A stretch of DNA of 64,000 bases, from assembly GCF_037042905.1 (NCBI RefSeq), contig NC_087251.1:34288001-34352000 (forward strand), given 5' to 3'. Below are positions 18,301 through 21,300 of this stretch, piece by piece. The notes below the pieces were generated by a model. The model did not search any database. It was not told where the DNA came from and worked only from the letters and a program-made list of their open reading frames with translations. The number at the start of each line of letters is the position of its first letter. Within the stretch, counting starts at the first letter, position 1. Position numbers and translations under genes: made by a program. The DNA comes from Lytechinus pictus. Lineage: Eukaryota.

Positions 18301-21300
18301 TCGAGGTCTCCAAAAAATAAATTTACAAATAAAATCGCAAAATACATCAACTATATTAGTCCCCTTTTTAATCATTTCCCACCATGCCCACCTTAAACAG
18401 TTTTTAGAACAATAGCACAGGCACATTCATAATTAGTGTGTAGTTATAAACTGGAGCAGAACCAAACGCTTTTAAAGGGATTTACTGAAACTCAAGAGAG
18501 GCATTCATATTTGTGCAACCCATAAGTGCAACACTTATGATATCAGTATCATTTACTAACTATTTCTCTTAAAACCATACATTTCATGTGTTTCTATGGT
18601 GACAAGAACTGGGCGTTGTGGCGTGCGCCTGTAATCCAAGCTATGCGGGGAAGTTACAAATTGATGCAGAGGTTCGAGGTTCGAGCCCTGGTCACGTCTT
18701 TTGGATGGTGACGTTAAAGGTCGGTCCCAGACGTAAATAATCATATCTGATTGATACACGCTTGACAAAACTCAAATACACACACACGACTTCCATAAAT
18801 ATTGTACATAGATAAAAAGTTTTTTTTTCATTGTGCTTTTTTCCGAAGATTTTTTTTCAAATCAAATAATTTGTGAATGAAATTGATATTAAAAATATGC
18901 TGCTGATAGTATTTTTTCAAACTTTTTTGATGCATGCTACTGCTCTAAGACGCCACATAAAACATAACTCTGTCGAAAACCAACTTCGTTTTTATCAGCA
19001 GGGGGAACACACCTGGCGGCGTCAAGAGGTGATGATCTATCTTTGAGGAGATGAGGTAGGACAGGAAGAGTTAAGGTGTGTCTTGGAGACGTGAAGGCCC
19101 ATGCGTTATCTTGATAAATCACCCCTGTTACTCGCCAAGACGGAATAATGAAAAAATATAGGCCGAGACCCGGACGGTTCCTTGACGACTCCGCTTTTCA
19201 ATTTCCGAGTCTGATGAGGAGGGTTAAACTGTGGTGTGATATTGTGAAGGTGATCAGCTGCTCCTACCAAGCCTTCCAATATCTACAGTAGTTCAAATAC
19301 ACCGCGCGTGTTCTTGAACTGCTTATAGATTCGATTCAACTGATATTTGCTTCAAGAGAGTAATGGATAGACTTTGGGGAAAAACGCCAAAATTATACAA
19401 TAAATCGTTAGACGTGGTTTAAATTACGGTAGAAATATTGTAAATTTTTATTGCTTGGATTGTTTTCGCCATTGCTTACAGAGTTCCTTTGAAACAATCT
19501 GATTAAGATCATCTCTCTATATTTTATATTACATTCCTCGAAATCCATTGGCATTATTTTTCACCCATGCATCTGCTGCCTTTCCACATCCCCTTTAGAG
19601 GCGTCATCATTGTCTTCGTGAGCTTTAAACATGACCAACATAGCACCATGAAAGACAAAGCACCGATTTCATTATCAAACAACCCCGGAGACATATTATT
19701 TAAAAAAATAAAATCTCAAAAAAACATCACGATTTGATAATTTGATTTTTATTCAAGGAACATGGCGCAAGCATGAGATCTTTGAAAATAATGATATCCC
19801 AAATACGATTGGGGAGCATTTAATCAACATACATTTTTGGAGATTTTCACTGACTAATTGCTCTCGGCCAATTAGATGCAATAATTGATAATAACTTGTA
19901 ACACCTGTCATTGAAAATTACTGATTATTTGTTTAATGAAAGTTCCTCAGGTCATCTTTAAGAAATGACAAGTAAATTTAGATGCGATAAGGTCGTGGAG
20001 AGGTAAAATTTTCACCTGATCTTTCCATTAGACAAAGCCACTATTTTTCTTTATGTATTCACGAGTATATTCATCTGCGAGGAAGTCAAATGAATCGTAT
20101 TACACTACGTACCGAACCCGATGAGTTGCCTGAGGATAAAATGCTATTTTGGGCTGAAAAACCACAGTACCGGCAACAAATCTTCTTTTCAATCTTACCC
20201 TCTCTCTCACTCTCCCCTCTCTCTTATACGCTTAAAATTCCAAGGATTTAAAATAAATCCAGATTTGTCTGCAAATAGTGACCAGTCGAATATTAGATTT
20301 CGAATTAAGTAAATTTAGATAGAAAGCAAAAAGATTTGAATTCAGATCATTTGAAATAATTCAAAAGTTAATCATTAAGATTGTAAATAAATCCAATATG
20401 GGGCTTGTCACTATTCACAACCGAACCTGATTTTTTTTTCGTTGGAGATTTACAGTGTATCTATCTATCCGTCAATATATCTATCTGTCTATCTTTCTAG
20501 ATCCTTTTTCTCCTCTCACTTTCTTTAATTTACATGTAAACTTCAAAAATCAAAGCTATCCATAGAAAAAAATAACCATTAGAAATAGCATTTTACTTGT
20601 GAAAAAGAACCAATGCCTACTGAAATGATGTGAATATCTGTCACTCATAAAAAAGACAGTTTGATATTGATAATACCCGTATGACATTATTTTCGCCATT
20701 TGGAAGATTTTTTTCTGAAAATATATAAAAAAATGTTTACGAATATCACATAATTTCACATATAAAAAAGAGAAATCTAATATCGATACGAAGATAGAAG
20801 GAAAGCGTTAGAGTCTTGCATTATACCATACTGATCTAAGGAAGATATTAACCTGTTTCCCATGTTTCTGTACCTAGAGACCTGTCTTGTTCTTTGTGAT
20901 TTAACTAATACTGAAAATAGTGTTGCTCATGTTCGATTGTTTCTTTCCTCTTGTGCATAATTATAGACCTGTAATTCATTATTCGTTGAATATCCGTTTC
21001 TGAAACAGATGCAAATTGATATATATTTTAAATATCTCAATTACATCTTAACCAAAAGAAATGCAATGCGTATTTTAACAAATTTGGTATATCTCGTTTT
21101 CTATATACCCAGGGAATCTGAATTGAATATATCACTAACCACCTACCGTGAAATAAAAGCCGCAAAATCCATATCCCATCAAGAGAATCGCAAATTGGGG
21201 ATAGACCGTATTTGTATGCGACCCCTTGGTTTATTGAGCTTCAAATCCCCTTTCCTGATTGACAGAGTCATGGAAGTAAGCGAACAGTTCATCCTAATTC

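Follow-up and report, generated by a model that had tools for sequence, protein, structure and literature searches.

Does an invertebrate genome contain a SINE with a head derived from 7SL RNA, like Alu? The question was raised by a 180-nt element at positions 18608 to 18787 of a 64,000-nt stretch of the Lytechinus pictus genome (NC_087251.1, positions 34,288,001 to 34,352,000; hereafter the window). A preliminary description made from the sequence had proposed that it could be a further, independently arisen chimeric SINE with a 7SL head, mobilized by a LINE that does not depend on poly(A). 7SL SINEs are called exceptional and confined to vertebrates in the excerpts of the literature searched, and all those described there keep both 7SL ends. 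The element was found at this position, and the proposal was supported. In all likelihood it belongs to a young chimeric SINE family, in which a 45-47-nt 5' Alu domain from the host 7SL RNA is joined to a tRNA-like segment with a B box, a Deu-like piece and a hairpin with a (CA)n tail, and which is likely copied by an I-group LINE (Table 1).

Table 1. Parts of the SINE copy in the window; positions are counted from the first nucleotide of the window.
Feature	Position	Strand	Details
7SL-derived head, the complete 5' Alu domain	18608-18654	+	47 nt; closing helix, helix 3, U-turn and helix 4
tRNA-like segment, anticodon arm to T arm	18655-18694	+	Assigned by alignment scores; 7-nt duplication in the long form
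Pol III B box	18678-18688	+	Consensus GGTTCGA motif
Fragment resembling the first ~38 nt of the Deu (Inv/Nin) domain, which is a central domain	18691-18728	+	28/38 by eye versus AmnSINE1_HS
LINE-type 3' hairpin	18728-18764	+	Outer stem, 3+4 internal loop, 6-bp inner stem, 4-nt loop
Terminal spacer and (CA)n tail	18765-18787	+	(CA)n itself at 18778-18787

The Copy in the Window

The (CA)n tail was present as first described. Inspection of the flanks agreed with the earlier statement that no TSD is visible at this copy; other copies do have TSDs (see below). The window copy contains a run of four T at 18699-18702, which was found in 10 of the 98 full-length copies. The outer stem of its 3' hairpin is damaged, and the fold reached -5.7 kcal/mol compared to -13.0 kcal/mol (z -5.1) for a typical copy. 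With its internal T run and weakened hairpin, the window copy probably does not serve as a source of new copies. Nothing reached the gathering score in an Rfam scan of the locus; for the full SRP model the head is not long enough.

The Head Is Derived from the Host 7SL RNA Genes

The genome was found to contain seven full SRP RNA genes (272-283 bits). By blastn, nucleotides 1-31 of the element were identical to one of them, L037 (31/31), while the head matched a second gene, L036, in 35/37 positions and the other five in 34/36. Global alignment of the head gave 42/48 for L037 and 40/47 for L033 and L034. The head is derived from the host's own 7SL RNA genes and not from a tRNA, in agreement with what had been proposed. 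The same holds for the absence of the S domain. The 7SL 3' end was not detectable either: there was no blastn hit in the body, and 1032 of 2000 shuffles equalled the score of the body against the last ~50 nt of 7SL. Since the S domain is absent and the chimeric structure uniform, the element is not a plain 7SL retrocopy; full-length 7SL with poly(A), as in P7SL retrocopies, was not found.

When aligned to the Rfam fold, the head starts at nt 1 of the 5' Alu domain and stops where its closing helix is complete. It is 45-47 nt long among the forms of the family and terminates at the closing helix in all four forms compared (majority form, window copy, L038 and L046). All 12 scored pairs were kept in each of the four (12/12), which is a statement of pairing potential. 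The Alu-domain fold, described earlier as retained, is therefore kept with respect to the 5' domain, but only this 5' half of the Alu domain is present. Every difference between the window copy and L037 lies within loop 4, with nt 1-31 and the last six nt of the head unchanged. At the third pair of this helix the SINE and L037 have U-A, and the other six 7SL genes have C-G. Loop 4 varies in length between subfamilies by both insertions and deletions; its triplet, which we take to be the partner of loop 3 in SRP RNA, was kept in 14 of the 15 haplotypes listed.

The minimum-energy fold of the whole RNA did not contain the Alu fold and was no better than shuffles (z -0.99). Folded alone, the head formed helices 3 and 4 and not the closing helix, and this was also the case for the host 7SL heads. 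One SRP14-like match above the Pfam cut-off, with a stop inside, was found in the genome.

We lean towards the head binding SRP9/14. A chimeric SINE could also have taken up the 7SL piece only as the A-box part of a promoter, with the Alu fold as a passenger and no role for SRP9/14. We consider this unlikely, though clearly worth weighing, as the head ends exactly at the closing helix and the nucleotides unchanged relative to L037 are more than an A box needs. The capture may be recent, however, so that the fold may just not have decayed. The indels of loop 4 and the absence of the Alu fold from the whole-RNA fold would also agree with a promoter-only role, and a LINE that recognizes a hairpin may need no ribosome docking.

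L037 (G000:C12:4895279-4895577), whose closing helix has the U-A pair seen in the SINE head at its third position, is the sole 7SL gene without a downstream B box. It may represent the donor lineage or may have been gene converted by the SINE. In the G000:C10 cluster a SINE copy ends ~35 nt upstream of each of the 7SL genes L031, L035 and L036, with which it was co-duplicated.

The SINE Family Is Young and Dispersed

A search of the genome (812 Mb, 368 contigs) with the element gave 1801 candidates, of which the 40 that were scored yielded 47 matches on many contigs. The best full-length matches among these 40 of the 1801 were 96-98% identical and had unrelated flanks. An exact 25-nt body pattern matched 990 times and an exact 20-nt tail pattern 987 times, while the reversed controls gave no match, so that the element is multi-copy. 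On contig C1, 65 body hits and 56 tail hits had 34 in common, from which capture-recapture gave 1,630-1,890 copies genome-wide; the estimate of about 1,600-1,900 is a lower bound if older copies escape the patterns.

The first 30 body matches on C1 were picked regardless of the head. The 7SL head was present in 26 of them, and the other four were 5'-truncated, one within the head and three below it. The head-body junction is thus common to copies with differing flanks, in keeping with the preliminary description. An isolated 7SL pseudogene piece that happens to neighbour an unrelated SINE, or contamination with human Alu, is hardly credible in view of this recurring junction and of the match between the head and the host's own 7SL genes. 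The best Rfam hit on the locus, a weak match (E 0.16) to the Alu-derived mir-1268 model, would speak for it. Both candidates were rejected on copy number, the host 7SL match and the recurring junction.

The mean divergence from the majority sequence was 2.0% for 23 full copies chosen by the body pattern alone and 3.0% across all 98 full copies. The family is young. TSDs of at least 5 bp were found in 43 of the 98 full-length copies, a sample enriched for copies close to the window copy, compared to 12% in shuffled pairings. For TSDs of at least 10 bp the numbers were 19 of 98, five of these 19 being tandem-dimer artefacts, compared to 2.8%. Copies truncated to the tail occur, and the tail repeat of the 98 copies ends 0 to 23 nt past the reference end. 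The family is short, dispersed and multi-copy with uniform ends, as expected for a SINE, and its TSDs, 5' truncations and variable simple-repeat tail are marks of target-primed reverse transcription.

Judged from the sequence, internal Pol III promoter boxes are present as an A-box position and a B-box motif. The 7SL A-box position, as given in an excerpt of PMC7245038, falls inside the stretch of the head that is identical to host 7SL. When 13 sampled words were compared to 24 public runs, 14 of the 24 rows, under two organism labels, contained half of the words or more. All 24 runs are contigs, which are unable to show a transcript start, and the six RNA rows had fewer than five words and count as no evidence.

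Head-to-tail SINE dimers were observed at L005, L016, L023, L039 and L041-L044, and runs of three SINE copies on contigs C19 and C2. Identical copies with identical flanks were found on different contigs (L076, L083 and L102; L039-L044), and therefore the SINE is carried there within a larger repeat. Three relatives, L133, L134 and L147, are older and more diverged and have the Deu-like core as well; the tail repeat of L133 differs from that of the family.

The B Box and the Deu-Like Piece

The preliminary description had placed a B box about 70 nt from the 5' end, as in Alu. The box is there, but the comparison to Alu did not stand, because the box is not derived from 7SL; none of the seven 7SL genes has a consensus B box inside. 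Long and short forms of the SINE exist, the long form being marked by the 7-nt duplication. In the long form the B-box segment scored 41 against tRNA-Lys and 40 against an element downstream of the 7SL genes, compared to 29 against the 7SL interior. Since the tRNA-Lys and 7SL-downstream scores exceed that of the 7SL interior, the segment is regarded as tRNA-like. Overall the 7SL interior scored 26-29 against the segment, and a faint 7SL trace (z about 2) may be present.

A B-box motif was found 18-42 nt downstream of six of the seven 7SL genes (L031-L036). The segment could therefore stem from the tRNA-like element downstream of 7SL genes, a deletion in the 7SL gene body having pulled the external B box inside. 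Against four of the downstream flanks the segment scored 37-43 in three of the five SINE forms. However, these three forms reached 38-41 against tRNA-Lys too, which would fit a generic T-arm likeness; the tRNA controls consisted of Lys and SeC only. By these alignment scores the tRNA and 7SL-downstream sources appear indistinguishable. As the tRNA controls scored equally, the 7SL-downstream element was not favoured as the source of the B box. The deletion origin is also at odds with L037, which is the gene closest to the head and has no such flank, and with a Deu piece directly behind a tRNA head being a known layout (SINE2-7_EBu). Altogether we hold it to be rather unlikely and prefer a tRNA origin of the segment.

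In several of L031-L036 the downstream B box lies in a stem resembling a tRNA T arm. This motif is possibly an extragenic B-box promoter, of the type known for yeast U6; a literature search for a B box downstream of 7SL turned up nothing. ARAGORN called tRNAs among the loci examined, all Lys except two SeC sequences, and G000:C4:9700711-9735957 was found to be a dense tandem cluster of tRNA genes.

A Deu/Nin-type central domain had also been proposed. A resemblance was seen by eye, but it is limited to a fragment of ~38 nt, the count in Table 1 referring to the AmnSINE1_HS row in Fig. S4 of PMC7245038 (seen in part). The complete domain is 70-330 nt long (PMC4824008, excerpt).

A version of the SINE with a tRNA head was not among the 30 unselected body matches, which comprised 7SL-headed and truncated copies. 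The post-head segment without the normal head matched 141 times, and no other recurring head was seen by eye among 100 listed matches. A Deu-core pattern followed by another next base gave 61 matches, and the 30 examined all belonged to the SINE family or to its worn or truncated relatives. The older copy L133 used as query gave 23 matches and no other recurring head, as judged from the set as a whole.

The 3' Hairpin and the Probable Partner LINE

The tail of a typical copy folds as a two-tier hairpin with the energy given above. The same architecture was found at the 3' ends of three LINE families bearing RNase H. Among 90 RT loci it was carried by L267, which has a match to RVT_1 and, after the RT, to RNase_H (E 1e-15). 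L267 was assigned to the I group because RNase H follows the RT. Two relatives, N3 and N5, were found via its C-terminal part and have the same 3+4 internal loop. The label Nimb for these LINEs is our assumption, and was not derived from an RT tree. Related LINEs keep intact ORF2 frames of 1239-1269 aa. Sea urchins are named among the hosts of Nimb (PMC4758252, excerpt).

Comparing the hairpins of the SINE and N5, eight of 11 pairs were identical, three were changed on both sides and none was broken, and the loop sizes were equal. A hairpin motif was scanned on both strands. It occurred 42 times in 70 RNase H LINE loci, two of the 42 being SINE tails, and its matches to the source folds are partly by construction because it was defined after seeing them. 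It occurred once in the 90 top RT loci (in L267, itself an RNase H LINE), and not in one shuffle of each locus set. There were 16 distinct occurrences in 208 other loci; among the 14 listed, 10 were SINE tails, one was an N3 end and three were unrelated.

SINE hits at most 30 nt behind an N3 LINE end numbered 2 of 178, compared to 0.03 expected, and two further fusions behind N5 ends (L350 and L369) fall outside the 178-hit count. No shared TSD was found around the four LINE+SINE fusions, so that they may stem from a preference for target sites rich in CA and not from co-insertion. At L015, L067, L350/L374 and L369 the 3' end of an I-group LINE is followed directly by a SINE copy or tail fragment; in L374, an N5 element, the 1239-aa frame is intact.

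No LINE with the same tail sequence or a (CA)n end was found in the 3' regions of 90 of the 150 RT hits and in 40 further RNase H LINE ends. In the three hairpin-matching families the terminal repeat is (AACC)n or (AAC)n, and the outer-stem sequence of the SINE differs from theirs. An exact-tail search gave 95 matches, and no LINE frame was found upstream of the 30 examined. In plain alignment the tail scored 38 against the CR1-type L277 family compared to 36 against I-group LINEs. This raises the alternative of a partner from the CR1/L2 group, with L277 as an example. It is at the true L277 3' end that the tail aligns, none of 5000 shuffles reached that score, and a CR1 partner is given for the sea-urchin DeuSINE SINE2-3_SP (PMC3747384, excerpt). 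The L277 end is, however, AT-rich, finishes in (AAATC)n and does not form the two-tier hairpin, and a CR1 partner is improbable. The partner of the SINE likely belongs to the I group, within it probably to Nimb. The earlier suggestion of mobilization by a non-poly(A) LINE is thus supported, and the common hairpin narrows it to I-group LINEs.

Comparison to Known SINEs

Having a 7SL-derived head, the family is SINE1 by the definition in PMC7245038 (excerpt). It falls outside the Alu/B1, Urop and hagfish lineages, and its architecture is unmatched among the SINE1 described.

The hagfish SINE1-1_EBu (Kojima, 2020; PMC7245038, excerpt) is alike in its 7SL head, absent S domain and microsatellite tail, in its proposed birth by chimera formation with an older tRNA SINE, in having a non-L1 partner, and in a similar copy number (2363 full-length). 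It keeps the 5' 96 nt and a 3' part of 7SL, whereas the sea-urchin SINE keeps nt 1-47 only. Its B box is derived from 7SL and its partner is an RTE element producing ~17-bp TSDs, whereas the sea-urchin SINE has the B box of a tRNA-like segment and an I-group hairpin. Alu, FLAM, B1, Tu and Urop likewise carry the 7SL 5' Alu domain at the 5' end and have lost the S domain (PMC13023118 and PMC7245038, excerpts). They arose by central deletion with the 7SL 3' end kept and use L1 and poly(A), while the sea-urchin SINE has no 7SL 3' end and a (CA)n tail. Tree-shrew Tu II/III comes closest to a precedent for such a hybrid, as its leftmost unit is described as perhaps derived from both 7SL and tRNA (PMC13023118, excerpt); the comparison is by description only.

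A 46-nt 5' Alu domain (SA46/AY46), which binds SRP9/14, was defined in HeLa assays, where SA46 gave 86% of full-Alu colonies (Moldovan et al.; PMC11760393, excerpt). According to the same excerpt it supports one round of retrotransposition, and without a B box further movement requires a gained promoter. Its extent matches the sea-urchin head. SA46/AY46 was, however, engineered, driven by an outside promoter and mobilized by L1, whereas the sea-urchin SINE looks like a natural case of promoter gain.

A resemblance to the start of the Deu domain relates the present SINE to DeuSINEs (AmnSINE1, SINE3 and sea-urchin SINE2-3_SP), from which it differs in having only ~38 nt of this kind and in its 7SL head. 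Swapping of heads in Deu SINEs is known for 5S rRNA heads (PMC4758252, excerpt). The partners of DeuSINEs are listed as CR1-type, Crack or RSg-1 (PMC3747384, excerpt). The mollusc Meta and V SINEs likewise have tails related to Nimb LINE 3' ends, but they differ in having tRNA heads and other central domains (PMC4758252 and PMC11481361, excerpts).

In agreement with the earlier proposal, no invertebrate 7SL SINE was found in the literature searched, a search which lay outside Repbase, Dfam, SINEBase and the repeat tables of sea-urchin genome papers. Excerpts of two papers give the known range: SINE1 was stated in 2024, by the author of the hagfish SINE1, to be known only from primates, rodents and hagfishes (PMC10886601), and 7SL SINEs were stated in 2026 to be limited to supraprimates, hagfish and shrew mole (PMC13023118). 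These statements speak against the possibility that the family, though genuine, has an entry already, be it as SINE2 or as unclassified, in a library such as Repbase or Dfam. As Repbase does contain sea-urchin SINEs, we regard this possibility as fairly unlikely rather than negligible.

Proposed Origin and Mobilization

We propose that a tRNA-headed SINE of Deu type had its 5' part exchanged for the 5' domain of 7SL, probably via a template switch. A 7SL RNA copy would have needed a borrowed B box, because host 7SL has no internal consensus B box and carries the motif downstream in six of seven genes. The outcome would be a Pol III promoter of mixed origin, in which 7SL supplies the A box and tRNA the B box. 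Pol III would transcribe the element, and its 5' domain would bind SRP9/14 and so bring the RNA to ribosomes. Its 3' hairpin would be recognized by the LINE reverse transcriptase, with priming at the (CA)n end.

A broader reading is that this is the first 7SL-headed SINE of an invertebrate and a natural 46-nt minimal Alu domain, with a B box borrowed from tRNA, in which docking through SRP9/14 to the ribosome captures the reverse transcriptase of a hairpin-recognizing I/Nimb LINE. This we put forward tentatively, as a proposal that falls a little short of being probable. If true, I/Nimb would be the third LINE clade exploited by the Alu trick, after L1 and RTE.

A head made of the 5' domain only separates the promoter function of the Alu head from its binding of SRP9/14, and the family represents an evolutionary test of the minimal-domain result in HeLa cells. 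The likely partner reads a 3' hairpin and not poly(A), so it can be asked if ribosome docking helps with a selective LINE. Given the youth of the family and the intact ORF2 frames of related LINEs, a trans-mobilization assay is feasible.

Other Features in the Window

By appearance a Tx1/L1-type LINE with a poly(A) end lies at 56699-60800 of the window. It has endonuclease- and RT-like frames of 403 and 881 aa and one frame break near 57865-57910. Short-period tandem repeats that are open in several phases were found at 42857-43276 and 45182-45553. In keeping with a sea-urchin host, the five protein matches of a 386-aa frame on the minus strand (41255-42415) were all from Lytechinus (uncharacterised proteins, 53-64%) or Strongylocentrotus (37%).
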